A stretch of 64,000 nt of DNA from a virus, in IMG/VR virus record IMGVR_UViG_3300027734_000045, positions 57,062-121,061 of that record; one strand, given 5' to 3'. Made by a program: the position numbers and the translations under genes. The notes beneath the pieces are model-generated. The model had not been told where the DNA came from, did not search any database, and was given only the letters and a program-made list of their open reading frames with translations. Of the stretch, positions 9,001 to 52,976 are shown one piece after another. Every line of letters starts with the position of its first letter. The stretch's first letter is position 1.

Positions 9001-10804
9001 GCAAAAGGCCGCGGCGGCTTCTAAACCGTTCTTTACTGGTCGAATCGTGAAAGACGCGAAGGGGGAGGAAGGCTTTATCGTCGAGGATAAGGGAGACGGC
9101 TACTTCAAGGTCCAATTTGGCGATGGCCACATCAAGTCAAGAGCCGGAAGTAAGCTCACCGCGACCGATAAACAGGTTAGGGACTACAACGGTCTAATGT
9201 ACACAGCTACCCACGTTAGAAAAGGATACGTCAAAGGCCTAATGAACTACGGGCAGACTGGCGGAGAGGGACTCGCAGTCCCGGTTCAACTTTCTGACCC
9301 GGGACAGAAGACCACTGCCGCTGGAGTTTCATACGGCAACGTGAAGGTTACCAAGAACGCGCTTGGAGCTCAACAGGTTGTTGTCGACAACCCGTTGCCT
9401 CCAACTGAGTCCGGCTTTACCAGCATCCCATCTCTCTCAACGGCCGTAGAGACAACGCTAAACCCTGACGACCCGCAGGCCGCTCTTAGAGGAGCCTCCG
9501 CAGCCTGGGACTCAGACTCAATTGAGGACCTAGACGTTAGATTCATGAGAGCAATCAACGAAAAGGGTGAGGACTCACTGTCCGCGAAGTTTAAGCTAAC
9601 TGCCTGGGCTGGAGACGCGTTTATAAATGACCTAATGAAACGCGCGGCAGAAGGCGACCAGAGCGTGACTATCACTGACGCGCTGCGCGTTCCAAAGCAG
9701 GTGATTAACTCCAACGGTGTTCTTTCATACGACCCATCTGAGCTTTCTGCAGCAGGCTTGACAGGAGCCGCGTATTCAAGCAGCGAAGGAACTACCGCCA
9801 CGGTCACCTTAGACGATGGCACTAAGATTGTCTTTATGAGAGCTGATAACGCTACAAAGGCTAAGGGAGAAGGAGTCAACCTCTCGAGCGGCACCAACGT
9901 GATTGCCTTCCACAACAAGGTGCTGGTTCTCTTCCCAGAAGGAGCTAAGAACGACCCAGACGCAATCGCTAAGGTGCTGGCACAGGCTGGAGTCCGCGAT
10001 TCCAGGCCGGCGACAGAAGCGGACGCTAAGACACTTATAGAAAACCGCCTAATCAGCATCTTTGCTGGAAAGACCAACCCGAAAACAAATCCAGGTGGCG
10101 CGACTAGAGCTACTCTCCTTGACGAGGTAAAGGCTAAGTTCGACATCGGACCGGAGGACGTGACCATGTCCACCGGCGGCGGCGGTAGAGTCGAGATGAG
10201 GCTGTCAGAAGAAAAGGCCAAGGCGCTTGCTAAAAAGACAAACATCGCTCACTTCAAGCACACGTGGCACAGTACCGGTCAAATAGCCCAAAACATGGGA
10301 GAAAGCGACGAGGACTTTAGAGATAGAGTTGCAGACGCGGTAGCCGCTAAGCTGGCGACTCCTCAAGGCGGACTTCTTTCTACGACCACTCGCTGGACAG
10401 AGGGTATCCCGACGTCAGGAATGAGCAGCGCCTCTGACGTAAAAACAGGCGGTGGAGACTACGTGTTCTTGACCCCACAAGGCGCCTGGGCTGGCAAATC
10501 TGGAAGCTATTACAACGGAGCGCCTACCATCTACTTCTCTCCAGAGAAGCTCTTCCGTAGACTTGACTTCTGGGCGAACGCGACTGACAAGTATGGCGCT
10601 AGGTCCGAGAGCAAGACAGCCATGACCGACATGGTTCCTGGCTCCTACGAGGCCATGTTCAAGCAAAGAGTTAGCTTTGACGACCTAGACTCTCTACAAG
10701 TAAGAACAGATGCGCATAGGGATGCACTTATAAAGGCGCTTAAAAAGCGTGGAGTCTACGACTTTGGCGGAGTGCCAATTGAGCAAATAATACAGGTAAG
10801 CTAA
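2..10804 (+). CDS. Giant multidomain protein (>3,600 aa, 5'-truncated), probably virion-associated; helical repeats, SH3/Tudor-like repeats, PI3K/HipA-like kinase domain, C-terminal ART-like domain
   Basis: Frame is open from nt 2 (CGT GAA CTG TAT TTG), so TTG at 14 is probably not the start. Kinase-like GSNPGG..FYVK..NEALA..DALLANWDV..DN..RVDPGG at about 6385-7050; C-terminal H..GGLLS..DYVFL..YEAMF. Lies just upstream of the head genes. Confidence 0.75.
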   Translation, partial: RELYLKDLFAKKKAEIDEASKATGPSPDAAAEGKVKAKNKAEAKGKMAEPATDAQKNYVKAMLKNPAVPDDVRSRIQADLDEQGDAINKNDIGLHIAELKNYPSKSLPTDKMYNSIQRELYARGASPEEVDKILADLPNMDKKQASDLIGSLKEKPDLAGEEATKNGFEETTNESDKYDGQRRWTKVEAGKRTTVLLNGDGWRVNHQSNVDPATGTWNDSQMQSIDHDSEKSSSADDVFKNAADTHETLGAKEELPIDESAVAADVAAEVKELSDKQKEPATDKQRAFVDSLLANPKVPADVKSDIESKLAAKPDMNKAEIGEIIGALKKLPGSDAPTSKMLNSVKRELIARGVPVNEANETRANLDGMSKSEVSDLISKLKSKDDAAGAQAAANGFVEATTPEDQAGGVRRFNLLGSDDELLAALTLDGEGFTVNRKDENGEDDELFLGRNLGSFERIANAAKAAQDLKNTDVTKTPGFDSESDREKKIATATYNRPGDSGTWMEGKTPDGQRGWSYYDADGNVTEVTENPDGSFTRRSSDAPEPVTFDSVDEAFSLDSKPSDTGSKMSDFQDDFDDIIEAVQGLDLSGDDESSDDTPASDLKNYVSNQVTQAEELIKKGDLLSAQASLALAAADANDSDVPGADELGDALNNAAKSIADIREAQKALGQGSGGGDEPPSTNAPSSAGDDDFENNVRDVSGDIMSIGEELDKNLKSSAINAIEEREVADGRTILKNAEDSMGQAQEALAAGDTETARKLIDQAASQLADASDVFENILDQSDEGKAVRKLGKSAGDLALKIRETLLDGQPRGGGSAGDRIFGKAGISDDRIMQAMEDVDDWVASEKGNEVSGWDNKVGNLDQMISSFNDEPEARMQKTAEALYELGRELEDNGYKDSANTLFDMSKALSDEFYGDSDEDEDETSTSGTAEYAPATDWTPAENGFNFTGGDEPGEVSAALAKKKKKVEDLIADGDYGGALDELFDGAASIPMSRAMEDDLSGSYDGIQDGDVFYQNADTIVYKTKDGRWRVYSKDETDGFIDTGEPATDQLADELLKEMMAPKSDWTQARFYDPRLNDLFHANNAPGPSGNPANHTSTPNYKISFDGLRMPDDWAGDLGLPEKGEEEEPYSDGELIDTWLKNNGLDELGVKWDPSSTETTFGGANVNFEIPEGAKDKFGEAYYGEGATWKDLEDDEIPEAIEGGEPSSSIYSDTEKAAMNRNIGDSVVVVGKKGKEKPGKIIGVVPSSIGQYIVEHDDGSTSLPWYFDLKPEGAETPSADKKPTEARFNGKIGDSVVVVGKKGKEKPGKIIGYVPGSIGQYIVEHDDGSSSLPWYFDMKADGLETPSADGEGTTTSPAETEKPKKGNQIGERIVVIGKKGKEKPGKIIGYVPGSIGQYIVEHDDGTTSLPWSYETKPEGGETNLGSSGRSSEQVARDAENAKKTANELAAEWNSKPFPIADPDSLASEESLTKMRNILLDGATNSDYFGPALKAIDDPNLSGTEKLQRIADALTERGVGSDGKGVDLPNANPGLPLNGDYSGREKALWAKSNITRALNLNGIFSTKEKEAGKDKLSPRLQKIVDAELKKRSEGDEGNEGTGGVDPKVPSPSKPGGGGAEASTSENSSPELTSKVEGTNAQLTKRFASRDERDAWLKSIPKGAEAGIAISISSPTDFDFYNKKREHYEVKIDFDTRTEGLGVPKGLGAGRKKAIEWAEKEGFDLSEGEHSSESLVPKVNVDDKITMSNIRFDDKIDQAEKIEAKLKPGEEKDSARLRIKLARDKISKARKARLDGDLEESEKLTEEASAELTAMAEDIEKYMVSPKSQDAKYGLKNKEIREDAAKLAKAVEAVTAKSRIAFAEEKEAKSTESSASSSSTITGDKYKKLIDNAYEKYDPGVAQHSWDTKGIGESIMSHLTGIADDIKSGKELDAKDAAKKMRQLASMYNELADAATGSEGEDGAEWSTDDSSIQDLIQGAQELEKQADLLDPKAVDSPKAEAPSEPDSGETQEPISVDSVLTDGSLASKITKNADMDAAELEQLSTRIAKELENNPQLAAVLKLSGDSPILSALEELNSSNGESSQGLEGDLNVLRDTLDSTIEDSELIDSLTRLLKSVEKKNNTKNLTGFKKISEAKGSNPGGIYEDPKTGERFYVKFPKSTLHGENEALASAIYEELGVRSVKVEQGELDGKPVTYTRMIDGAKSDLKDKLSDKFYMKQLQEGFAVDALLANWDVAGLEYDNVVSDAEGLPVRVDPGGALLFRAQGTPKTDDQFNENVPELDTFTDKNSSRPAAKIFSSMTASEKLDSAVKLSDLDDDVIDNLVNEHISDEAAADKLKKLLKARRDNILSKLVSSKVFEDEASKQGESSEPDEEFPPYAYGEKKSHSEGDRVDVLWDPKNGVEMTGEVVSGPTEDQMYKIRLDDSKVNGDQAGNVITANIVSLRPEQAKPNFDEDEKPAAAPEVKTSTGELKPGDKVVYKDGSTGTIVKADKNPKYVHVAMDSKGGKLQIKALSKLTKVESAPDEKAAPALSPSGKKIVPKPTAKTVPTKTEPEPAADADATSTGFTNFKDANGVTWSSSITQKSNGDTVIKWDGTNGETFPVYLELDSFAGTWKVMKTDWAGHPFLVKDTWDSDSAGALNFVANEIKGGQGATDDLGDEPSIVPLKPVGNDMLAFNDGNGTTYPELPSVVLLKDPDSADSNPKYWIQIEPAADQNWSPFEDHMSSPATRSLAEAISIVNSHLKNKGVTKENVDSQVGDKEVVKWDVYGPGLVTSNVDTKALAETGLMSPVDPTKPMFRVKETPEGSLDLVIVPPDTSGLDLTAITVPDSESLDVAVSEALAADYKETSNYTPNEKEINWIQALSGNHLKDTSKWDVDMLKNASSTGTDVTKSGNAGDGYIVDSKQRPIGKGELVVLSDGRTGILAHVGLPDGEIKYDAPQPTATIVFADGSTEAVDSDKIRGIGRSLSMGYNAGSELTRIKRRYELQNMEKTGVDLTPEQKAAAASKPFFTGRIVKDAKGEEGFIVEDKGDGYFKVQFGDGHIKSRAGSKLTATDKQVRDYNGLMYTATHVRKGYVKGLMNYGQTGGEGLAVPVQLSDPGQKTTAAGVSYGNVKVTKNALGAQQVVVDNPLPPTESGFTSIPSLSTAVETTLNPDDPQAALRGASAAWDSDSIEDLDVRFMRAINEKGEDSLSAKFKLTAWAGDAFINDLMKRAAEGDQSVTITDALRVPKQVINSNGVLSYDPSELSAAGLTGAAYSSSEGTTATVTLDDGTKIVFMRADNATKAKGEGVNLSSGTNVIAFHNKVLVLFPEGAKNDPDAIAKVLAQAGVRDSRPATEADAKTLIENRLISIFAGKTNPKTNPGGATRATLLDEVKAKFDIGPEDVTMSTGGGGRVEMRLSEEKAKALAKKTNIAHFKHTWHSTGQIAQNMGESDEDFRDRVADAVAAKLATPQGGLLSTTTRWTEGIPTSGMSSASDVKTGGGDYVFLTPQGAWAGKSGSYYNGAPTIYFSPEKLFRRLDFWANATDKYGARSESKTAMTDMVPGSYEAMFKQRVSFDDLDSLQVRTDAHRDALIKALKKRGVYDFGGVPIEQIIQVS
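3665..4255 (+). repeat. Three near-identical copies of a ~50-aa SH3/KOW-like module within the giant ORF
   Basis: IG(D/E)xxVV(V/I)GKKGKEKPGKIIGxVPxSIGQYIVEHDDG repeated three times; ttggtaagaagggcaaggagaagcctggaaagattatcggc is identical in all three copies. Confidence 0.9.
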
Positions 10805-38068: not shown

Positions 38069-38266
38069 ATGGCTCAAGACAACCAAGCCGACCAAGGCGA
38101 ATTTTTAGGTAACGTTCTAGTGCTAACTAGAAATCAACTAGCGTCTGCTATGAACGCATGCACTGAACTAGAGGCTGCATTGACTATAGAAAGAAAGCGC
38201 AATGAAGAGCTAGCTGCTCGAGTCGCTGAACTAGAGTCTCAGACTAAGGCAGCTACGGATAAATAA
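38069..38266 (+). CDS. Small coiled-coil protein
   Basis: AAGGA RBS; heptad pattern; TAATG coupling downstream. Confidence 0.7.
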   Translation: MAQDNQADQGEFLGNVLVLTRNQLASAMNACTELEAALTIERKRNEELAARVAELESQTKAATDK

Positions 38267-38736
38267 TGATTAACGTAAAAGATGGCGCCAGAACTCTTCA
38301 ATTTGATGGAGAGCTTTTAGGTACGTCTTCTTCATACAGGAGAGGCTCTGTCCGCTGGATTGAGTTTGAGCTGTATAGAACCAAGAGCGGTTCGTATGTT
38401 TTGTCTCGTGTTGGAGTTTCACTGGTCTTCCATGGAGCGGCGTGTCCTCTAGTAAAGAGATACAGTCTTACTGAGGCGCCGGTTGAAGACCTAACTGAAC
38501 GCTCTCTTCCTTGCGAGCAGTGCAACCCTACTGATGACGTAGATTTAGTGTTCCCCGAAAAGAGTAGAAGCTGGGCGCAGGTTAGCGAAGAGCCGCAGGC
38601 TGTTCTAGACGCGCTTTACAAGTACGATGACGGTGGAGCAAGGTACCTAACAAACGTGGCGCAAAGGCTATTAGAAGATTCAGCCGAAAAAGACTCCAAA
38701 ATAGATGAAGTCTACAGGATAGAACTTATCCCATAG
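38266..38736 (+). CDS. Hypothetical protein with probable Zn-binding H/C residues
   Basis: RW.E..LYRT..G.YV motif; H...C and CxxC. Confidence 0.7.
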   Translation: MINVKDGARTLQFDGELLGTSSSYRRGSVRWIEFELYRTKSGSYVLSRVGVSLVFHGAACPLVKRYSLTEAPVEDLTERSLPCEQCNPTDDVDLVFPEKSRSWAQVSEEPQAVLDALYKYDDGGARYLTNVAQRLLEDSAEKDSKIDEVYRIELIP

Positions 38737-38772: not shown

Positions 38773-39783
38773 ATGTTTATAGTAATCGAAGGCACAGACG
38801 CCTCAGGTAAGAGTTCACTTACTCAGGCTGTCGAAGAAGAAATCGCAAGCAGGCTCCAATCAAGGCTGCCTATCAACTCATTCCATAAGGGTAAACCTGA
38901 GGAAGAGACTCGTCGTTGGGTTTTGCGTGATTACGTTCTGTCAATAGAAGATAAGTCATTCGTAGACAAGGCGACACTCGCTGACCGCTGGCACTGGGGA
39001 GAAATAACCTACGCTCCGCTAAAACGTCCACACACTAACAAGGACGGATACGGCCTTCTTGGAGAGGCTGGGTGGCGCTGGGTGGAACTTTTTATGGCTT
39101 CCCGTGGTATCCAACAGTTCTGGCTTTACCAGCCTCTAAGTGTCATAGAGGGCCGTCTAAAGGCGCGTGGTGATGACTATGTCTTGCCTGATGAGCTACC
39201 TTTTATTCTAGAACAATACGGCAAGGCAGCCGAGCAAATCATTGGCCTAAAGAAACTTCAACCTGCTCCAGACAGCCTAGATGAGATTCCAAATCTCGCT
39301 AAGGAAATTGTTGACCTAGCGCTTGTCAAGGCTGAGTCCGTTAGAGCTCTAAGAGACTTTGGTCCGTACATCGGAGTTCCTAAGCCTAAGGTTCTGCTAG
39401 TCGGCGATAGGCACAATGCCACTAAGCGCTATGGGCACGAGACTAACCTTCCATTTATGCCTGTTGATGGGAACTCAGGCGAGTATCTTCTCACTGCTCT
39501 TCCGGCAGATGAGTGGAAGAACATCGGACTTATAAACATAAACGACCATCCGGAGATGTTCCGTTCTCTTTGGGAAGCGCTAGGCTGTCCGCCGATAGTA
39601 GCGCTTGGTCGCCTGGCCGAGCGAGGCCTAGTTAAACAAGGATTCATAGATTCTCAATACAACGTTGCTCCGCATCCGCAGCGGGTGCGCAGATTTGCAA
39701 ACTCTAGAAAACAAGAATACGGCGAGGCGATACTTAGATTAGCCGACACTACAGATAAGGAAGACAAATGGATACTGCGATAA
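38773..39783 (+). CDS. Thymidylate/dNMP kinase fused to a C-terminal uracil-DNA-glycosylase-like domain
   Basis: P-loop IEGTDASGKSS and DRWH..E..Y; C-terminal KVLLVGD..PF...GNSG.YL..PPIVALG..A..HPQ matches the UDG superfamily layout. Confidence 0.75.
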   Translation: MFIVIEGTDASGKSSLTQAVEEEIASRLQSRLPINSFHKGKPEEETRRWVLRDYVLSIEDKSFVDKATLADRWHWGEITYAPLKRPHTNKDGYGLLGEAGWRWVELFMASRGIQQFWLYQPLSVIEGRLKARGDDYVLPDELPFILEQYGKAAEQIIGLKKLQPAPDSLDEIPNLAKEIVDLALVKAESVRALRDFGPYIGVPKPKVLLVGDRHNATKRYGHETNLPFMPVDGNSGEYLLTALPADEWKNIGLININDHPEMFRSLWEALGCPPIVALGRLAERGLVKQGFIDSQYNVAPHPQRVRRFANSRKQEYGEAILRLADTTDKEDKWILR

Positions 39784-40622
39784 TCAACATCAAAGACGGA
39801 GTCAATGGCTACGTTGACCTAGTGCAACATGTTTTAAAACACGGTAAGGAAGTGGCTCCACGTGGGCAGAAGACCAGAGAAATTGAAGACGCCATCATTA
39901 GAATCGATGATGTCTACAACACTTTGCCTTTAGGAATCAACCGTGGAACCGTTCCTGGAATCGGTGCTGTAGAGGCTTGTCAGCTACTTGGAGGAAGCAG
40001 CATCCCGGAGCTAGTGATAGCCGTTGGTCCACAGTTCAAAAACTTTGCCGAGGATAACGGAATCTTTCACGGTGCGTATGGACTTAGAACCAATGGGCAA
40101 TACGACGTTATTATCGAAAGACTCAAGGCAGACCCTGATACTCGCCAGGCCGTAGTCACAATCTGGAATCCAGAGTACGACCTGCAGCCAAGCAAGAGAG
40201 ACTATCCTTGCACGGTTTTACATCAATTTAGAATTCGTGACAATAAACTAAACATGAGCGTCTACATGCGTTCCAATGACGTTTGGCTTGGTGCCGCCTA
40301 CGACTTCTTCCAGTTTACCCGTGTTCAGTTGGCTATTGCTTCAGTGCTAGGAATCGAACCTGGAACTTATAACCACCACGTCGGCTCGCTTCACATCTAT
40401 GAGCAGCACTACGAGGCTGCAGACAGTCTCAAGTATAGTGATAAGATTATTGATGTGCCGTTTATAACTGGAGCAACATGGGCAGAGGTTAGCGACTCAG
40501 CAAATGACGCTTTGTTTGCCGCCATGGATGTTAAGCCACTAGATAGCATAAGCCAAGACGCACGCTGGTACGCCGAGGCAATGAAAAACGCAATCAAGCG
40601 CAACGCTGAGAAGAGTGAGTAA
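39768..40622 (+). CDS. Thymidylate-synthase-family enzyme, dCMP hydroxymethylase-like
   Basis: DYPCT..QF.IRD.KL..MRSNDVWLG...D..VGSLHIY; Asp at the position of ThyA Asn177, as in T4 gp42. Confidence 0.82.
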   Translation: MDTAIINIKDGVNGYVDLVQHVLKHGKEVAPRGQKTREIEDAIIRIDDVYNTLPLGINRGTVPGIGAVEACQLLGGSSIPELVIAVGPQFKNFAEDNGIFHGAYGLRTNGQYDVIIERLKADPDTRQAVVTIWNPEYDLQPSKRDYPCTVLHQFRIRDNKLNMSVYMRSNDVWLGAAYDFFQFTRVQLAIASVLGIEPGTYNHHVGSLHIYEQHYEAADSLKYSDKIIDVPFITGATWAEVSDSANDALFAAMDVKPLDSISQDARWYAEAMKNAIKRNAEKSE

Positions 40623-40862
40623 ATGCCAGAAGACGGCGAGCAGTACATAGACCTAGGCATTAGCCACCTACGTATTGTCGCCGTTCAACTTCACGTGGTC
40701 TACAAAGAACTACGCGAGGCCGGATTCGATAAAAGTGAAAGCTTATATCTAATCTCGCAGCTGCTTGTTGTGTCTACTCCTGAAGTAGACAGTGGACCTT
40801 ATAGATACGACAACTACAACGACAATGAGAGAGACGATGACGATGATGGTGCAGGAGCCTAG
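40623..40862 (+). CDS. Hypothetical protein (79 aa)
   Basis: Abuts the upstream stop; LH..Y..L..AGF...E.L pattern. Confidence 0.6.
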   Translation: MPEDGEQYIDLGISHLRIVAVQLHVVYKELREAGFDKSESLYLISQLLVVSTPEVDSGPYRYDNYNDNERDDDDDGAGA

Positions 40863-41319
40863 GCCGTCCTGGGACGAAGTTTGGATGGACGTTGCTAGAA
40901 CTATTAGCAAACGTTCAAGATGCTCTAGAGCGCACGTAGGCGCAGTAGTAGTTTCGGCTGAACAGCGAATAAGCGCGACTGGCTACAACGGCCCGGCTGC
41001 GAATCTAAAAGTACAAGGCGACTGCATAAATTGGTGCGACAGAGCTAAGGGTCTTACTCCACTTGACAATACCTATGATTCTTGTCCGTCTATTCATGCT
41101 GAGGCCAACGCTCTTTTATACGTAGACCGCTCGAGAATTGAAGGCGGAACTATCTACGTTACTGGTGCTCCGTGTATGCAGTGCGCCAAACTTATCAGCA
41201 ACTCTGGACTGCGTAGAGTCGTCTCCATTGTTAGGCAGATAGATGTGCACAGAAAGCCAGAACGCGTGATAGACTATTTACGTAGCTGCGGAATAGAAGT
41301 ATCTACCATTGAGGAGTGA
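40843..41319 (+). CDS. dCMP deaminase
   Basis: RPSWD..WM..A..RS.C..VGAV..GYNG..HAEANA..PCxxC; start at ATG 40843 or 40846 is more plausible than GTG 40792. Confidence 0.9.
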   Translation: MMVQEPRPSWDEVWMDVARTISKRSRCSRAHVGAVVVSAEQRISATGYNGPAANLKVQGDCINWCDRAKGLTPLDNTYDSCPSIHAEANALLYVDRSRIEGGTIYVTGAPCMQCAKLISNSGLRRVVSIVRQIDVHRKPERVIDYLRSCGIEVSTIEE

Positions 41320-41322
41320 CAA

Positions 41323-43143
41323 ATGACACGTGGATTAGAAGAAGTAAAGTTAGACCTAGTTGATAGCGTTGAAAAGGCAGGACAGTTTCTAACCTGGCTT
41401 GGAGAACGCAGGCCACACAACGCTATAGCCATTGACACTGAAACAGGAGAGCTTCCTGGTCGCCCGCGCTCAGATGCGCTTTCTCCTTGGCACGGCAGAC
41501 TTCGTTTAGTGCAGGTTGGGGATGCGATGCACGGCTGGGCGATTCCTTGGGACGAATGGGCTGGAGTCTTCTACCAAGCAATGAACAAATACGATGGTCA
41601 AATCGTGTGTCACAACATCGCCTTTGAAGCTAAGTTCTTTGAGATTCAGTCTAAGTGGAGTATGCCTTGGCAAAAGGCGCACGACACTATGATTATGGCT
41701 CAAATTATCGACCCGCTTGGCTCTGGCGCTTTGAAGAGGCTGACATCACAATACGTTGACAGCAGGGCGGCTGCTTTGCAGTCTAACTTAGATAACGCTT
41801 TGATAGACAACGGTTGGACCTGGGGAACTGTACCTACAAACTTTGAACCGTATTGGGCCTATGGCGCACTGGACACTGTGCTCACGATGAGACTGTGGGA
41901 AAAGTTCTGGGAGAAATGCGGACCTGATGGACCTTATAGCAGATCGTACGAGCTTGAGATGGCTGCAAGAAAAATAGTCACTCGCATGGAACTCAACGGA
42001 GCGCGCATCGATTTAGATTATTCGCGTAAGAAATACGAAGAACTTAACAGCTATACTGAGCAAGTGAAGGCTTGGGCAAGAGACACGTACAATGGAGTTT
42101 CTATTACCAGCAACATTCAACTAGTTAGGTTGTTTGAAAGCATGGGAGCTGAGTTCACTGAGTTTACTGCGACTGGCCAGAAATCTGCTACTAAGGACCA
42201 ACTAAGACTTCTAGTGCGAGACGGCTCCCCAGAAGTACAGAATTTAGCTCAAACAGTTTTGGCTCAACGTAAGGCAGATAAACTAGCCAACACCTACTTC
42301 CTAAACTTTATAAATGACAACATTAACGGATTCGTTCACCCGTCTGTAAAGACTCTTGGTGCGCGTACTGGTCGCATGTCTATCACTAATCCTGCACTGC
42401 AGACTCTACCTAAGGGCGATGACACTGTTCGCCGTGCATTTATTCCTAAGGACGAAGACCACGTAATCGTGACCTCTGACCTTGACCAAGTCGAGTTTCG
42501 TATGTTTGCGTCGATGTCCAAGGACCCTAACCTAATCAGCCTGTTCAACCTTGCTGACGCAACTGGTTCGGACCCGTTTACTGAGATTGGCCGTGAGATT
42601 TATGCTGACCCGTCTATGCAACGTTCAGATAAGAGACGTAATCTAATCAAAGGCGTAATCTACGGTCGTCTTTATGGAGCCGGAGTTGAGAAGCAGGCAA
42701 TCACTGCTGGTGTTGCAAAAACACAGATGCAGGCTGTGTCAGACGCCTTTGACACTAGGTTCCCAGGCATGTCCGTCTTTCAAAAGCAAATCGATGACCT
42801 TGGCATGCGCAGACTGCGAGCTGAAGGTCAAGGATACGTTCACACTTGGACTGGAAAACGTCTTCCTTGTGATGACGACCGCACCTATACCTTAGTGAAC
42901 TATCTGATTCAAGGTGGAGCTGCTGAGGTATTTAAGAACAACTTAGTAAAGTTAGACCAAGCAGATTTGACAGATTTGCTTATCGTGCCGGTGCACGATG
43001 AAATCGTACTAAACGCACCAAGAAAAGATGTCAAAGAGATTATGCAGACTGTAAAGGAGTGTATGACTACGACAGAGGGATGGGCAGTTCCGCTCACCTC
43101 GGGAATCGATGGACCACTTGAAACGTGGGGAGATAAATACTAA
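41323..43143 (+). CDS. polA: DNA polymerase family A with 3'-5' exonuclease
   Basis: IDTET, HN..F, HDT, Y...D exonuclease motifs; RTGRMS..P.LQ; DLDQVEFR; K....YG.LYG; NY.IQG; VHDEI. Confidence 0.95.
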   Translation: MTRGLEEVKLDLVDSVEKAGQFLTWLGERRPHNAIAIDTETGELPGRPRSDALSPWHGRLRLVQVGDAMHGWAIPWDEWAGVFYQAMNKYDGQIVCHNIAFEAKFFEIQSKWSMPWQKAHDTMIMAQIIDPLGSGALKRLTSQYVDSRAAALQSNLDNALIDNGWTWGTVPTNFEPYWAYGALDTVLTMRLWEKFWEKCGPDGPYSRSYELEMAARKIVTRMELNGARIDLDYSRKKYEELNSYTEQVKAWARDTYNGVSITSNIQLVRLFESMGAEFTEFTATGQKSATKDQLRLLVRDGSPEVQNLAQTVLAQRKADKLANTYFLNFINDNINGFVHPSVKTLGARTGRMSITNPALQTLPKGDDTVRRAFIPKDEDHVIVTSDLDQVEFRMFASMSKDPNLISLFNLADATGSDPFTEIGREIYADPSMQRSDKRRNLIKGVIYGRLYGAGVEKQAITAGVAKTQMQAVSDAFDTRFPGMSVFQKQIDDLGMRRLRAEGQGYVHTWTGKRLPCDDDRTYTLVNYLIQGGAAEVFKNNLVKLDQADLTDLLIVPVHDEIVLNAPRKDVKEIMQTVKECMTTTEGWAVPLTSGIDGPLETWGDKY

Positions 43144-47930: not shown

Positions 47931-49145
47931 ATGAAAATTCTTATGACAGGCTATACAGCCTTGCAGATTGGTAATCCAGTCCGCAGTATTCAAAAAATCA
48001 ACGTTCCAGCATCTATCGTGAAGGCGCTGCGTGACGCCGGACACGAGGTCGATTGGCGGAAGGTCACCGTTGGCGAAGACCTATCTATGTACGATGTTGC
48101 CTGGATAAACTTGGCGCCAATGAACTCGCTAAATGGACGCCATGGAGCGATGGGTACTCTGTACACTTTAGCTTCTGGTCTACCTTGCGTAGGCTTCTTC
48201 GATGACTGGCAGTTCAACGCTGTGTTCAACGGTGCACGCGCGCTAAAGCGTGACACGACTAAGATGCTTTATAAGCACCTGTTTGGTCCAGCAGACGCTC
48301 GTGGCACTGAGGCAGCTACGCATTTTAGCCGCAAGTCAGTAGACGAGGCTATAGCTCGTATTGAAGCTGTAGACCCGGCTCGAGCAAAGAAAATCTCCTT
48401 CGAGAGATACTACATGTTAGACAAAGACGCAGACGTCGAGCCTTACGAAAAAATGCTCATTGAGTCAGCTAGTCTTCTTCTAAATGATCGTTGGGCTGAA
48501 GGAATGGTTCCAGTGTGTCCAATGTATGGTTTTGGTGATCGTTCACTTGTGCGCAAGCGTATGCCAAAGGACATGGGCGCAATCGAGGCGCTAGACCCAA
48601 GCCCGACTATTTATGAGCTTCTAAATGAGGTTGCTCCGGCTGCACCTGAAACCAAAAAACGCGGCTGGGTACTTGGCGCGCTTATGCCACACGACACCTG
48701 GTTAGATAAGAAAACTATTTCCTGGCCTGTAGAAATCGTTGGTAGTCGCAAACTTGTTCGTGAACGCGGCGGTCAGCGCTTTGACACAGAGAAAGAAGTG
48801 CTAGAGTTCTATAACCAGCACTGGGGAATTATGTCTCCGCCTTACATGCACTCTGGCTCAGGCTGGTGGCGTAGTCGTTTTATGTACGCAGCCCGTGTTG
48901 GTTCTATCCTGTTGACTGAGAAGGGTGAAGCCAATGGGCTTGGCTCAGCTTACAACGTCACTCTCGCTCAGGTTGAGAAGATGTCAGACGAGGAGCTAAA
49001 GGCTACAGCAGACGCACAGGCCCAAGCGCTTCGCGCATTTATGCCAACCTATCAAAGCTTCGCTGAACACTGTGTAAGAATCGTAGAACGAGCTGTGAAA
49101 GAAGACAAGGGCCTAAAGCTAAATCCTGACGGCACTCGAGCATGA
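47931..49145 (+). CDS. Glycosyltransferase-like protein (GT-B type), probable DNA-base glycosyltransferase
   Basis: MKILMTG..AL..AGHEV..DLS.YD start; G...PPY...GSGWWR.R...A donor-binding-like segment. Confidence 0.7.
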   Translation: MKILMTGYTALQIGNPVRSIQKINVPASIVKALRDAGHEVDWRKVTVGEDLSMYDVAWINLAPMNSLNGRHGAMGTLYTLASGLPCVGFFDDWQFNAVFNGARALKRDTTKMLYKHLFGPADARGTEAATHFSRKSVDEAIARIEAVDPARAKKISFERYYMLDKDADVEPYEKMLIESASLLLNDRWAEGMVPVCPMYGFGDRSLVRKRMPKDMGAIEALDPSPTIYELLNEVAPAAPETKKRGWVLGALMPHDTWLDKKTISWPVEIVGSRKLVRERGGQRFDTEKEVLEFYNQHWGIMSPPYMHSGSGWWRSRFMYAARVGSILLTEKGEANGLGSAYNVTLAQVEKMSDEELKATADAQAQALRAFMPTYQSFAEHCVRIVERAVKEDKGLKLNPDGTRA

Positions 49146-50164
49146 GCAAGATTTTGGTGACTGGAATGTCAGCACCACAGGCGTCTCAAAAGGCTAACTC
49201 TCGAGGTTTAAGTTTTACTAAAGTCGTAGTTGACGCGTTGTCTGAGCTTGGCCACGAGGTTCACTGGTCTCTGCCCTCGCTAGACTGGACTGAGGAAGAC
49301 TTGTCTTTATTTGACTCGGTTGTAGTTGGAGTTTCTCCGCTAACGAGTCTAAGTGCTAACTACTCATACGGTGGTCTTCATGCTATTGGAGAACTAAAGG
49401 ACAGTGACAAACTTACCCTACTAATCGATGCTCCACAGGTTGCTCAAATAGGTGCGGGTCTACGGGCAGTTAGAAGTAATCCTGATAGCCTCACTAAGGC
49501 ATTCTATTCGAATAGGCCAGGGTATCAGCGGGTGACGGATTCGAGTGTCTCTAAAAGGCTTCTAGCCACCGCCGAGTGGTTGCTGGACGAGCAGTGGCCA
49601 ACAACTATCTATCCCGAGTTGCCGTGGAAAGATTCCGACTCGACAGAGCAACTTCTTCCTAGTGGAGCTAAAGGTGCGTTAGTTGGAATCAACCGAGACA
49701 TCGCTCTAATCGAAAAAGACCTACTTACTGCAAGAAGAGAGAAGTGGGTAGTCGACAGCTACACGACTCCATGGGCTAAGTCTACAGTAAAAACTATCTC
49801 ACTCCCGACTGCTCCTATGAAGTGGCATAAGGGATGTGACGACGTCATGGTCCAAACTCAAATTGCTCGGTCAATTGGAGCACTAATAACTCCTTACAGA
49901 CAAGACGGCACTTGGTGGAGCTACAGATACGCTCAAGCGCTGTCTGCCTACACACCAATAGCTACAGGCTGGCAAGAGAGCGGGAAACTGCACGACTCCT
50001 GGAGTTTCTTAGCGGCAACTATTGAAAGTGCAAGTCAGAATATACGTGATGGTATTTCTATAGAACAGCGTGAGTCCTACGTGGCGGCCATTCCAAGTAT
50101 AATCGAAACCAATAAGAAACTTCAAGACACACTAAAAATTACAAAAAGAAAGGTAATACTATGA
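49142..50164 (+). CDS. Second, paralogous glycosyltransferase-like protein
   Basis: KILVTG..AL..LGHEV..DLS.FD and G....PY...GTWW..RY..A parallel the upstream gene; ATGA overlap. Confidence 0.65.
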   Translation: MSKILVTGMSAPQASQKANSRGLSFTKVVVDALSELGHEVHWSLPSLDWTEEDLSLFDSVVVGVSPLTSLSANYSYGGLHAIGELKDSDKLTLLIDAPQVAQIGAGLRAVRSNPDSLTKAFYSNRPGYQRVTDSSVSKRLLATAEWLLDEQWPTTIYPELPWKDSDSTEQLLPSGAKGALVGINRDIALIEKDLLTARREKWVVDSYTTPWAKSTVKTISLPTAPMKWHKGCDDVMVQTQIARSIGALITPYRQDGTWWSYRYAQALSAYTPIATGWQESGKLHDSWSFLAATIESASQNIRDGISIEQRESYVAAIPSIIETNKKLQDTLKITKRKVIL

Positions 50165-50649
50165 GCGATAACGTGCTTTTTAAAAAGTGGCTCGAGAAAA
50201 CAAGAGAGCTTCAAAAAGAAGTTTACAAAATAGACTACGCCTCAATGGAAGGCGATAGCCCAGAAAACATCAATAACCTAGTTGAGTACATTCGCTGGAA
50301 CATGCTTGCCATTGACGATGAGCTAGCAGAAATGCGCCAGGCAATCTCGTGGAAGCCGTGGCAGCATGACGAGCCATACGCAGACCGCGAGGAGCTAATC
50401 AAGGAAGCCGTAGACGTTCTGCACTTCGTGGCTAACATAATCGTAGCTGCTGGAGGAACTGACGAGGTACTAGATGAGTTCTACGTAGCTAAGATGGAAA
50501 AGAACCGTGCAAGACAGACCGCTGGATACAAGGTCAAGGCCGAGGGAATCAAGTGCGTAATGTGCTCGCGCGCGTTAGATGATGTGGCACCTAGCGAAAA
50601 TCATCCAAATGTATGCGTAAAGTGTGATGAAGAAGATAGGAACAAGTAA
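50161..50649 (+). CDS. All-alpha dNTP pyrophosphatase (dimeric dUTPase/dCTPase, MazG-like) with C-terminal CxxC..CxxC
   Basis: DELAE....WKPW....EAVDVLHF....Y..K..N..RQ. Confidence 0.85.
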   Translation: MSDNVLFKKWLEKTRELQKEVYKIDYASMEGDSPENINNLVEYIRWNMLAIDDELAEMRQAISWKPWQHDEPYADREELIKEAVDVLHFVANIIVAAGGTDEVLDEFYVAKMEKNRARQTAGYKVKAEGIKCVMCSRALDDVAPSENHPNVCVKCDEEDRNK

Positions 50650-51068
50650 TGGGAAGCGTAGATTTTGAATGGGTAAGACAACAGTTTATTGAGTCTAAAA
50701 CTAAAATCGTAGTTGGTCTAGCCGTAATGAAGCTACTTGAAACTTGGCAAGAGATTGACCTAACACCAGACCAGGCAAAAGAAGTCTTTGAAATCCTAGG
50801 TTCTTTAGCGCAAGGTCACGCCATAGCAGCGAGCAAACCTGATGAGGTCTGGGTTGGCGCTAGACGTGGAGACCTAAAGGTTGGAGACGAAGTTCGTGTC
50901 AAGCGTGACGCCTACTCTGGAGAGCTAGGTACTCTTCACAATGGGCGCCGAGGAAAAATTATAGCAATTAGAAGTGGTGACATCATCATAAGAACTCTTG
51001 ACAACAAGAGTCCATCATTAGATGGAGTACACTACGCTCCTGACCAGTTAGAAAAGAGAATCGTCTAA
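50649..51068 (+). CDS. Hypothetical protein with C-terminal SH3-like barrel
   Basis: LKVGDEVRVK..HNGR.G.I; translationally coupled on both sides. Confidence 0.65.
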   Translation: MGSVDFEWVRQQFIESKTKIVVGLAVMKLLETWQEIDLTPDQAKEVFEILGSLAQGHAIAASKPDEVWVGARRGDLKVGDEVRVKRDAYSGELGTLHNGRRGKIIAIRSGDIIIRTLDNKSPSLDGVHYAPDQLEKRIV

Positions 51069-51376
51069 TGACAGAAGAATCTAAAAATGAACTTCCTAGA
51101 ATTGAGGCTTTGCGTGAGGCTGCAAGAATTATCTCTGGTGATAGAGACGTGCAGTATGGAGCTCCAGAAGATAACCTAGGACGTATAGCTAAGCTGTGGT
51201 CGGTTTTATTTGAAAAAGAGATTACGGCTCAAGACGTGGCGATGGCGATGGTCGCACTAAAGATGGCTCGCTATGTGAACAAGGGAGACTTCCAGCCCGA
51301 CACCTGGATTGACATCGCTGGATACGCTGGAATTGGCTATGAAGTTGGCAAACCTAAGAACGAGAGCAATCTATAA
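51068..51376 (+). CDS. DUF6378-like helical protein (possible nucleotide hydrolase)
   Basis: A..I..GDR..QYG.P......IA.LW...DVA..M..LK.AR...D.W.DIAGY. Confidence 0.75.
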   Translation: MTEESKNELPRIEALREAARIISGDRDVQYGAPEDNLGRIAKLWSVLFEKEITAQDVAMAMVALKMARYVNKGDFQPDTWIDIAGYAGIGYEVGKPKNESNL

Positions 51377-51443: not shown

Positions 51444-51983
51444 ATGCAAACATTCGTTCCACTGACAACTAAGTTCTCTGACATAGCGCAGGTTCTAGAC
51501 AACAAGCGACTAAACAAGCAGGCACTAGAAGGCTGGCAGATTCTTATGGTTCTGACCAGGCTAAACCCAGACGGCTCACAGCGCGTAGTCAAAGGCTGGG
51601 CGAACCATCCAGCAGTCAAGATGTGGGAAGGCCACGAAGTAGCTCTTCACGACTACATCCAGGAGATGGTTATCGAATGGAAAAAACGTGGCTTCAAGTC
51701 GACCATCGGAGACAAGGCTGCACAGACCATGCAGCACGCCAAGGCTAACGGTTTTGACATCGATACGTACACTCTCCCGTCTTGGATGGTTGACCATGAA
51801 GTTCATGAACTCGTTGCGGCTAGTCACCGGGTAGCTCTTCTAAACAAAAACTATCAGTGGTACACGCAGTTCGGTTGGCAGGAAGACGACGGAATCTATC
51901 CTGAAGTTTACACGTATGTTTGGCCTAATGTTGACGGCACGTACATCATAGGTGAACCAAGAGCCACTTTAGCCAACAAATAG
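51444..51983 (+). CDS. Pyrimidine-dimer DNA glycosylase-like protein (T4 endoV/MSMEG_6728-like)
   Basis: MQTF.P...A..LD.KRL.KQ..E..QIL..W.NHPAV.MW.G...SH...L..K...Y. Confidence 0.78.
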   Translation: MQTFVPLTTKFSDIAQVLDNKRLNKQALEGWQILMVLTRLNPDGSQRVVKGWANHPAVKMWEGHEVALHDYIQEMVIEWKKRGFKSTIGDKAAQTMQHAKANGFDIDTYTLPSWMVDHEVHELVAASHRVALLNKNYQWYTQFGWQEDDGIYPEVYTYVWPNVDGTYIIGEPRATLANK

Positions 51984-52466: not shown

Positions 52467-52976
52467 TTGACAAAAAATAACGACATGTCTTGGCAAAAAG
52501 ACGGAGTCTGCGCTAGACCAGAAAACAAGGGTAAAGAGACGTTCTTCTTCTCAAGTAAGACGGACGAAAAATACCAGGCAAAGAACATGTGCTTCTCCTG
52601 CCCTGTAAGACGAGACTGTGTCAAGTTCGCTCTCGAGACAAAACAAATCTGGGGTATCTGGGGTGGAAAAGACGAAGGAGAAATCCGCAGGACTCTTTCT
52701 GTGTCCTGGAACGGTCAGGAATCAAGAAGACAGAGACCGCCTCAATGTCCTTATTGCAACGCAAGAACTAGTAAGTTGCAGACTATAGTGGCTGACGTTC
52801 CCGGCGGTGGGCGATGGACCACGATGAAACTTGTAAATTGCACTGAGTGTGACTTTACTTGGAGAAGTAGAACTAGTGCTAACGCTGTAGAGACTTATCA
52901 CATTCAAAGAAGCGAAAAACTCGCAAAGAGCGAAGAAGAAAAGAAAGCTAAGAAGCCTAAAGCTTTACCGGAATAA
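52467..52976 (+). CDS. whiB: WhiB-family Fe-S transcription factor with C-terminal zinc ribbon
   Basis: W...C..FF..AK..C..CPV...C...AL...GIWGG, followed by CPYC..CTEC. Confidence 0.88.
   Translation: MTKNNDMSWQKDGVCARPENKGKETFFFSSKTDEKYQAKNMCFSCPVRRDCVKFALETKQIWGIWGGKDEGEIRRTLSVSWNGQESRRQRPPQCPYCNARTSKLQTIVADVPGGGRWTTMKLVNCTECDFTWRSRTSANAVETYHIQRSEKLAKSEEEKKAKKPKALPE

Follow-up and report, generated by a model that had tools for sequence, protein, structure and literature searches.

What does a domain resembling a uracil-DNA glycosylase (UDG) do at the end of a phage nucleotide kinase? The question is raised by one gene in a 64,000-nucleotide (nt) stretch of viral DNA (hereafter the window), taken from positions 57,062 to 121,061 of the IMG/VR record IMGVR_UViG_3300027734_000045, which is 121,061 bases long and estimated to be 90% complete. 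The gene precedes and overlaps that of a homologue of thymidylate synthase (TS), and its product of 336 amino acids (aa) joins a YorR-like kinase to a C-terminal domain of 147 aa, here called the mini-UDG. We favour, with confidence just short of even, the reading in which 5-hydroxymethyl-dCMP (5hm-dCMP) is the substrate of the kinase and the mini-UDG actively excises from DNA bases of the uracil type, namely uracil (U) or 5-hydroxymethyluracil (5hmU). An active enzyme is favoured because the four catalytic and recognition residues are strictly conserved, and a uracil-type target because the residue that would read the base is Asn as in uracil enzymes, whereas Brig1 has Glu there (PMC11078745).

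The open reading frame (ORF; 38773..39783) is no chance frame, because a length-matched search of 5842 candidates returned 393 full-length-type homologues at E ≤ 1e-3; the best 120 of these 393 are 304-339 aa long, with query coverages of 89-100%. AlphaFold2 models the whole protein with a mean predicted local distance difference test score (pLDDT) of 91.1 and a predicted template modelling score (pTM) of 0.91. Elsewhere, the gene is annotated as 'thymidylate kinase', 'gluconate kinase' or hypothetical, and as nothing else. The first-pass annotation, which was made from the letters alone, had placed a UDG-superfamily domain at 39361-39783, corresponding to aa 197-336 of the ORF, and had named four motifs in the order of UDG families 4 and 5. 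All four occur in that order: LLVGD at aa 208-212 (continuing into GDRHN at 211-215), PF...GNSG..L at 227-239, PPIVALG..A at 273-282 and HP at 301-302.

Fold and family placement of the mini-UDG

When the mini-UDG was modelled alone from 64 diverse sequences (pLDDT 93.1), the predicted structure showed the α/β fold of the UDG superfamily, with the four-stranded parallel sheet of families 1-6. In a VIA-align comparison with 48,161 chains, the top match was the family-4 UDG of T. maritima (1l9g; Z 12.3, root-mean-square deviation 3.1, 131 residues aligned). UdgX (6ail) and the family-5 UDG (UDGb) of T. thermophilus (2d3y) both scored Z 11.6, the UDG domain of phiLo PolA (9qhs) Z 9.8, SMUG1 and SMUG2 Z 8.9, and MUG/TDG Z 8.2 to 7.6; the vaccinia holoenzyme (8q3r) scored Z 6.6, and the first clearly unrelated fold Z 6.5. 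Named UDG-superfamily enzymes make up 12 of the top 13 rows. The earlier placement nearest to families 4 and 5 is borne out by the scores of 1l9g and 2d3y, and the Foldseek comparison that had been proposed for the C-terminal domain recovers the UDG fold as well (E 6.4e-6; 38 matches at E ≤ 1e-3).

The mini-UDG shares its fold, the collinear order of its elements and an equivalent acid, Phe, Asn and His with the family-4 enzymes (UDGa) of T. maritima (TM0511; 1l9g/1vk2), T. thermophilus (1ui0/1ui1) and S. tokodaii (4zby). However, it differs from them in several respects. It is 147 aa long, whereas family-4 enzymes have about 190-200 aa; it lacks their KCRPP...C segment, the hairpin ahead of motif B and the 4Fe-4S cluster; and it has a kinase as its fusion partner and hardly occurs outside phages. 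Measured against the family-4 motifs GE(A/G)PG and HPAAVL (PMC4787834), motif A reads GDRHN in the window and G[DE]xR in the family, so that only the Gly and the acid are kept, and motif B reads HPQRVRRF in the window and HPQxVRRF in the family, with HP alone in common. The first motif had already been called non-canonical, correctly so. There is no conserved Cys column among the 64 sequences to match the four conserved Cys (one His in UdgX) of the 4Fe-4S enzymes, and each domain contains 0-3 Cys (median 1), compared with a median of 5 in 29 family-4 UDGs. The mini-UDG is thus predicted to lack a 4Fe-4S cluster, because Cys are few and the Cys-bearing family-4 segment is deleted; the loss of this segment (KCRPPxNRDP...C) and of the hairpin ahead of motif B could account for both the missing cluster and the small size. 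Net charge (median +1, isoelectric point 7.9) is uninformative.

Because of its motif A (G[DE]xR), its motif B (HPQxVRRF) and the deleted Fe-S segment, the mini-UDG fits no defined UDG family, and we read it as a separate, almost phage-only lineage of the family-4/5 branch in which the catalytic set appears to be kept.

Active-site residues

Residues were mapped by an hhalign alignment of 33 C-terminal domains with 29 canonical family-4 UDGs (GEAPG/HPAA) from Coriobacteriia genomes. These genomes were used for the profile because relatives of the SPO1 UDG domain were too few (5 proteins found); aligned with the single N-terminus of SPO1 gp31, the C-terminal domain gave a non-significant E of 0.48. 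The local alignment with family 4 is collinear over 123 columns (P 0.0018), and its gaps fall on the KCRPPxNRDP...C segment and on the hairpin ahead of motif B. It pairs G211-D212 with the Gly-Glu of GEAPG, F228 with the Phe of PFVG, GNSG with GAAG, N255 with the Asn that ends strand 2, ALG with TLG, and H301 with the His of HPAA. In the model, the mapped positions fall at the ends of strands 1, 2, 3 and 4, and UDG motifs lie at such strand ends.

Conservation was assessed in the 64 diverse homologues, whose identity goes down to about 33%. G211, F228, P230, N255, G279, H301, P302, R307 and F308 are each present in 64/64. Position 212 is Asp in 45 and Glu in 19, with no other residue; R306 is Arg in 59 and Lys in 5; R214 is found in 48, S235 in 61, G236 in 58, A282 in 60 and Q303 in 61. 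The motif residues form the most conserved columns of the domain, and the residue set of competent UDGs (families 1, 4 and the UdgX type), namely a motif-A acid, a stacking aromatic, an Asn and a motif-B His, is complete in every one of the 64. The alignments therefore show the predicted catalytic acid (D/E212), the stacking F228, the base-reading N255 and the motif-B H301 to be retained.

These residues bear directly on whether the domain would act at all. In one alternative, the mini-UDG would be a non-catalytic module that binds DNA, the replisome or a partner in dNTP synthesis and tethers the kinase to the replication fork, in the manner of vaccinia D4 or the UDG domains of N4-like PolA. 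UDG folds of phages and poxviruses are indeed known as structural parts of replisomes (PMC13697223; compare the match to 8q3r), motif A is non-canonical, and the gene sits near PolA in its cassette. However, the four catalytic and recognition positions are unvarying in 64 diverse sequences, and loss of the catalytic residues is reported for the N4-like domains (PMC13697223), whereas the mini-UDG keeps its own, which leaves a purely structural role improbable.

The same residues suggest which base would be read. The Asn at the base-reading position reads uracil in the S. tokodaii UDG, and Brig1, which excises glucosyl-hydroxymethylcytosine, has Glu there (PMC11078745). Brig1, a defence glycosylase, resembles the mini-UDG in being a divergent UDG fold nearest to family 4 in the context of hydroxymethylcytosine (hmC) phages; it differs in being bacterial, with an enlarged pocket and the Glu, whereas the mini-UDG is phage-encoded and has Asn (PMC11078745). 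Brig1 shows that enzymes of UDG fold can take modified cytosines as new targets, which gives some ground for another alternative, an offensive glycosylase that would excise unmodified host cytosine, or the modified base of competitor phages, and leave abasic sites. The mini-UDG is almost confined to phages: one genome each of 185,579 prokaryote species yielded a single locus, on a 7-kb contig of a Coriobacteriia metagenome-assembled genome that itself carries the same phage module. T4-type phages, moreover, destroy cytosine-containing host DNA. On the other side, cytosine excision by human UNG takes an Asn-to-Asp change. In the mini-UDG, the residue that would face the Watson-Crick edge is an invariant Asn, not the Glu of Brig1 (PMC11078745). 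We regard an offensive role as very improbable overall, and attack on unmodified host cytosine, which the first-pass annotation had suggested, as less likely because this Asn is the one found in uracil enzymes.

The kinase domain and the distribution of the fusion

The identity of the N-terminal domain as a YorR-like nucleotide kinase is strongly supported by homology over the whole kinase domain and by the presence of a P-loop and a DRxxxG motif. Searched against the PDB, the family profile matches YorR (2axp) at E 4.5e-21 over positions 1-164, followed by thymidylate kinases (from E 7.7e-6) and PPK2-type kinases; the dNMP-kinase-like partner named in the first-pass annotation is in keeping with this match. 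Foldseek of the protein model finds the SPbeta YorR (2axp; E 4e-7, TM 0.80 on the target), PHROG 761 'thymidylate kinase' matches the 336-aa protein at E 5e-8, and YorR is the sole match of the whole protein in a phmmer search of the PDB. EGTDASGK, DRWHWGE and RGD are unvarying in 24/24 aligned sequences. The window protein falls below the thymidylate kinase cut-offs (TIGR00041, 17.7 bits versus 83; PF02223, absent at E ≤ 1), and two divergent relatives, P0136 (28.8 bits) and P0229 (41.3 bits), exceed the 27-bit cut-off of PF02223. PADLOC gave P-loop-level matches only (VakA, PDC-M51B) and none to the C-terminal domain.

To define its distribution, the C-terminal 147 aa were scored against 1.84 billion representatives of clusters at 50% identity, which gave 533 matching representatives at E ≤ 1e-3, 208 at E ≤ 1e-10 and 8 at E ≤ 1e-30. 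Among the best 150 of the 533, 122 have an N-terminal P-loop together with a C-terminal HPQxxRRF (293-362 aa, median 318); of the remaining 28, 26 are without a P-loop, several of them starting inside the kinase domain like fragments. Four proteins of 136-150 aa (P0154, P0165, P0193 and P0252) begin at the mini-UDG boundary and look stand-alone, and in P0253 (421 aa, no Pfam match) the mini-UDG lies mid-protein at residues 94-216; the search for related loci found none for P0165 or P0253. Viral clusters with lengths of 127-137 aa are also present in the ESM Atlas, and 18-36% of their members carry the Pfam label UDG. Two shorter close relatives (158 and 109 aa) are perhaps fragments.

Among 50,697 phage records, the full protein was found in DSL-LC01 alone (OQ999401), an Actinomycetia phage assembled from a lake metagenome, which is also the nearest named relative, with 52.5% identity over the whole protein. 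The DSL-LC01 gene has the label 'thymidylate kinase', and downstream of it lie genes labelled thymidylate synthase, deoxycytidylate deaminase and DNA polymerase I; the kinase gene is not discussed in the available main text of the DSL-LC01 paper, in which 'thymidylate' occurs 0 times (PMC10611076). The kinase-UDG fusion is therefore the normal form of the family, common in uncultured phages and nearly absent from cultured phages and cells. No published description of it turned up in a search that lay mostly outside subscription journals. Novelty lies in two things: a UDG lineage with motifs of its own, no predicted Fe-S cluster and scores that stay under the Pfam threshold, and the obligatory joining of this lineage to a YorR-like kinase. 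Fold, type of kinase and pathway all belong to kinds already known.

Gene neighbourhood and the cytosine pathway

Features of the gene and its surroundings are collected in Table 1. Related loci comprise DSL-LC01 and 80 IMG/VR loci, 81 in all, whose 78 full-length proteins fall into 46 clusters at 95% identity, 36 at 80% and 19 at 60%, so that the sample has redundancy but also real diversity. The order kinase-UDG, TS homologue, dCMP deaminase, PolA is found in 80/81; the contig of the 81st stops inside the TS gene. The 16-nt overlap with the TS-family gene, which the first-pass annotation had noticed, is confirmed in the window, where the next ORF begins at 39768, and it recurs in 71/81 loci, with 13 nt in 5 more. 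One locus (L080:6417-7390) has an inserted gene, and about 970 nt separate the kinase-UDG gene from the TS homologue there. The kinase-UDG gene and the TS homologue are probably translationally coupled.

Table 1. Features of the kinase-UDG gene and neighbouring genes (positions in the window)
Feature	Position	Strand	Remarks
Kinase + mini-UDG gene	38773..39783	+	336 aa, two domains; stop codon counted
YorR/thymidylate-kinase-like P-loop nucleotide kinase domain and linker helix (aa 1-189)	38773..39339	+	Profile, Foldseek, PHROG
P-loop EGTDASGKS (aa 6-14)	38788-38814	+	
DRWHWGE (aa 71-77)	38983-39003	+	
RGDD (aa 132-135)	39166-39177	+	
C-terminal mini-UDG domain (aa 190-336, 147 aa)	39340..39780	+	Domain model, VIA-align, Foldseek
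Motif A equivalent GDRHN (aa 211-215)	39403..39417	+	End of strand 1; D212 pairs with catalytic Glu of GEAPG
LPFMPVDGNSGEYL (aa 226-239)	39448..39489	+	F228 equivalent to base-stacking Phe of PFVG; GNSG to GAAG
N255	39535..39537	+	End of strand 2; pairs with base-reading Asn of family-4 UDGs
IVALGRLA (aa 275-282)	39595..39618	+	Strand 3 and helix start; pairs with family-4 I(V)TLGxxA
Motif B equivalent HPQRVRRF (aa 301-308)	39673..39696	+	After strand 4; H301 equivalent to His of HPAA
Overlap of kinase-UDG gene with TS homologue	39768..39783	+	16 nt
TS homologue	39768..40622	+	Pfam PF00303 E 2.9e-27; C148, D179, D145, D171
dCMP deaminase	40792..41319	+	Pfam PF00383 E 9e-21; PHROG 174 E 2e-46
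Family-A DNA polymerase without a UDG domain of its own	41323..43143	+	Syntenic DSL-LC01 gene annotated DNA polymerase I
Two GT-B-like paralogues (404, 340 aa) that may be DNA glycosyltransferases	47931..50164	+	A lead only
All-alpha NTP pyrophosphohydrolase, dimeric dUTPase family (candidate dUTPase/dCTPase)	50161..50649	+	PF08761 E 3.7e-10; PHROG 18650 'dUTPase' E 6e-20
Pyrimidine-dimer DNA glycosylase family gene	51444..51983	+	PF03013 E 3.2e-18; sole repair-type partner found

The best solved relative of the TS homologue is the CMP hydroxymethylase MilA (5b6d; E 2.5e-22). In terms of ThyA residues, N177D goes with dCMP as a substrate, L143D/E with a non-methyl product, and D169N with 5-hydroxy-dCMP (5ho-dCMP) synthases (PMC13326640). 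Across the window protein and 80 homologues, the Cys at ThyA C146 (C148) is present in 81/81, the N177D Asp (D179) in 80/81, the L143D Asp (D145) in 81/81 and the retained D169 (D171) in 80/81, the lone exception being a broken gene. The Asp-type TS co-occurrence that had been put forward as a check thus holds in 80/81, and both things on which the earlier proposal was staked, a UDG fold and a tie to modification loci, are found. Since C146 is kept, N177D and L143D are present and D169 is kept, the homologue bears the signature of 5hm-dCMP synthases and not that of 5ho-dCMP synthases, for which D169N is lacking (the motif is RSND, with Asp at the D169 column in 80/81). The 5-hydroxycytosine (5hoC) pathway raised in the first-pass annotation is accordingly less likely, because 5ho-dCMP synthases have Asn at this position (PMC13326640). 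The 121-kb record has one TS homologue only, with no second TS and no ThyX. Judged from its genes, the set probably replaces cytosine by hmC.

The coupling to this enzyme bears on an alternative in which the UDG-fold pocket would bind or hydrolyse a free deoxynucleotide such as dUMP, 5hm-dUMP or dTMP, either as an N-glycosidase that purges uracil-type dNMPs before the kinase step or as an allosteric sensor that gates the kinase. Pairs of a TS homologue and an N-glycosidase, MilA/MilB, exist in nucleoside-antibiotic pathways. In the phage protein, the mini-UDG has a nucleotide kinase as its fixed partner, rather than an enzyme that acts on DNA, in 122 of the best 150 representatives, its gene is probably coupled to a nucleotide-making TS homologue, the whole-protein pTM suggests a fixed arrangement of both domains, and AP (apurinic/apyrimidinic) endonuclease and ligase genes are missing from the record. 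A UDG-fold pocket can also hold dUMP, as is evident from the title of PDB entry 6ajp, 'UdgX and deoxyuridine monophosphate'. Nevertheless, stand-alone viral mini-UDGs of 127-137 aa exist without a kinase, and a basic stretch after motif B is conserved (R306, Arg 59 and Lys 5; R307, 64/64). This stretch sits where, we assume, the UDG motif-B loop contacts DNA, and we know of no UDG-superfamily enzyme that acts on mononucleotides. A nucleotide-level role is unlikely on balance. One version of it, in which an N-glycosidase or sensor of UDG fold built into the kinase would destroy or exclude free dUMP or 5hm-dUMP, as the deaminase of the module would make them, and pass only 5hm-dCMP on to the diphosphate, is distinctly doubtful; if true, the domain would be the first mononucleotide-acting member of the UDG superfamily, and dNTP synthesis would have a form of substrate proofreading not described before.

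Further downstream, the two GT-B-like genes, which are related to each other (BLASTP E 2e-9) and have no Pfam match, find as ESM Atlas neighbours a cluster labelled 100% PF09198 T4-Gluco-transf (score 0.96, TM 0.61/0.69) and clusters of GT4. The product of the candidate dUTPase/dCTPase gene has weak dimeric-dUTPase matches in the PDB (E 1.3e-3). Members of the pyrimidine-dimer glycosylase family, which includes T4 endonuclease V, are presumably also AP lyases.

The glycosyltransferase-like genes imply post-replicative DNA chemistry and so touch on a further alternative, in which the UDG-like domain would flip a 5-hydroxymethylpyrimidine out of DNA and the fused kinase would phosphorylate its hydroxymethyl group as a leaving group for hypermodification. 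Such a scheme resembles 5-hmdU DNA kinases, and it would give a direct reason for the obligatory fusion and for the compact two-domain model (pTM 0.91). However, the kinase is of the YorR/Tmk type of nucleoside monophosphate kinases with DRxxxGE, the same kinase works without a UDG domain in the Gordonia phage Forza, and mere base flipping would not need the conserved acid and His. No family of the 5-HMUDK type was among the Pfam matches at E ≤ 1, the accession of that family being unverified. A kinase acting on DNA is thus hardly to be expected.

Several other ORFs of the window were noted. The gene directly upstream of the kinase-UDG gene (38266-38736, +, 156 aa) has no Pfam or PHROG match and is found, at 60-77% identity and in the same position, in most related loci that reach far enough upstream. 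A small, very acidic ORF of 79 aa (40623-40862, +) between the TS homologue and the dCMP deaminase has a counterpart of 31-52% identity in some loci, not in all. An ORF of 102 aa (51068-51376, +), flanked by the genes for the dUTPase-family NTPase and the pyrimidine-dimer glycosylase homologue, could be part of the nucleotide cluster; its label from PHROG 474 and 1167, 'phosphofructokinase' (E 1.4e-29), is implausible at this size. A WhiB-like regulator (52467-52976, +; PHROG matches down to E 1e-13) fits an actinobacterial host. A single ORF of 3596 aa (14-10804, +) is cut by the window edge.

Proposed function and comparison with known systems

The protein could be a bifunctional member of a T4-like cytosine-replacement pathway. 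From homology and synteny, we infer that its kinase would phosphorylate the 5hm-dCMP produced by the coupled TS homologue. The mini-UDG, in turn, would be an active monofunctional glycosylase for uracil-type bases in DNA, the candidate substrates being U incorporated from dUTP, as the dCMP deaminase of the module would make dUMP, and 5hmU from deaminated hmC or hm-dCMP. While the DNA is being replicated, it might guard the modified genome against these bases, as do the UDG domains on the polymerases of SP15-like phages, and the resulting abasic sites could be handled by the host or by the phage gene of the pyrimidine-dimer glycosylase family.

The function set of the phage T4 hmC pathway (the dCMP hydroxymethylase gp42, the dNMP kinase gp1, the dCTPase/dUTPase gp56, Cd deaminase and the alpha- and beta-glucosyltransferases) can be read in the window from genes alone, the counterparts being the Asp-type TS with L143D, the nucleotide kinase, the all-alpha NTPase, the dCMP deaminase and the GT-B-like genes. 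The kinase of the window is YorR-like, not gp1-like, and to our knowledge T4 has no UDG domain. The pairing of a YorR-like kinase with a TS homologue is already in print: such 'nucleotide kinases' adjoin TS homologues in the cytosine-hypermodification clusters of DLP3, RB69 and RL38J1 (PMC13326640). Like the kinase of the window, which is homologous to the SPbeta YorR (2axp/3kb2), they stand beside a MilA-like TS homologue and glycosyltransferase genes (PMC13326640). A UDG domain on the kinases of the three clusters is not described in the available main text, in which 'UDG' and 'fused' occur 0 times each, and their TS homologues make 5ho-dCMP (D169N), whereas the window TS keeps D169 (PMC13326640). 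DSL-LC01 has a gene for UDP-galactopyranose mutase, ORF125 (PMC10611076). Such a mutase is also encoded by the Rhizobium phage RL38J1, which galactosylates 5hoC (PMC13326640). A sugar in the furanose form might accordingly decorate the modified base of the DSL-LC01 clade.

A precedent is provided by the PolA-fused UDG domains of SP15-like (phiLo/YerA41) and SPO1-like phages (9qhs), which resemble the mini-UDG in having a UDG fold with conserved Glu/His and in being linked to an enzyme of the replication module, in phages whose pyrimidines are modified. In those phages, however, the fusion is to the polymerase and T is the modified base of the genome, whereas in the window the partner is a kinase, PolA has no UDG domain, and the pathway is directed at cytosine. 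An active glycosylase is favoured here because PolA-fused domains that have the same conserved Glu/His pair remove dU in advance of the replication fork in phages whose DNA is modified (PMC13697223).

A number of points weigh against the mini-UDG as a uracil-type repair glycosylase. Its sequence similarity to known UDGs is very weak: the window protein has no UDG match in Pfam (PF03167) at E ≤ 1, the gathering threshold being 24.3 bits; matches to PF03167 in 17/33 family members are all sub-threshold (best E 4.3e-4); the profile of the C-terminal domain finds 0 matches at E ≤ 10 among PDB sequences; and the hhalign probability of the family-4 alignment is only 14.7%. Motif A has Arg in place of the Pro of families 3-5. 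The follow-up enzymes are missing, in that no ATP-dependent ligase and no AP endonuclease of the Xth or Nfo type is present in the 121-kb, 90% complete record, whereas SP15-like phages carry PolX and a ligase. Repair leaves unexplained why the fusion is to a nucleotide kinase rather than to a polymerase. Moreover, the cultured Gordonia phages Forza (gp180-179) and Phendrix (gp182-180) have the same module of kinase, Asp-type TS, dCMP deaminase and PolA. Their kinases are 262 aa (Forza, L116:6995-7783) and 260 aa (Phendrix, L120:6001-6783) long. That of Forza shares 30% identity with the window kinase over 151 aa (E 1e-17) and has about 100 aa after the kinase core that cannot be aligned with the UDG domain, that of Phendrix matches the kinase part only, and the Asp-type TS of the two phages are 38% and 36% identical to that of the window. 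No UDG domain is present on the Forza kinase, and a search of the Forza genome for both kinds of UDG found none at E ≤ 0.1 (Phendrix was not searched). Since Forza has the module but no UDG, the cassette can do without the domain, which is therefore a lineage-specific addition to an older cassette that does not require it. The idea that the UDG domain tracks the dCMP deaminase, whose dUMP would make a UDG necessary, was also rejected: Forza has the deaminase and no UDG, and in Phendrix, for which no UDG search was made, a deaminase is annotated.

All functional steps of the proposal are ones that we infer. Four rival readings are kept for this reason, because ligase and AP endonuclease genes are missing from the record, and because the fusion partner is a nucleotide enzyme.

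Conclusions

With 533 clusters at 50% identity, the mini-UDG constitutes a large branch of the UDG superfamily that is nearly confined to phages and lies below the Pfam threshold. Among the components of the conserved cassette by which abundant freshwater actinophages probably replace their cytosine, it is the only one left unexplained. The cultured Gordonia phages that carry the same cassette, which in Forza is without the domain, offer a natural comparison, and a UDG of 147 aa that is predicted to lack an Fe-S cluster is a potentially useful reagent. The substrate of the mini-UDG would tell how uracil-type bases are handled by phages with modified cytosine, or else point to a role of the UDG fold not seen before.

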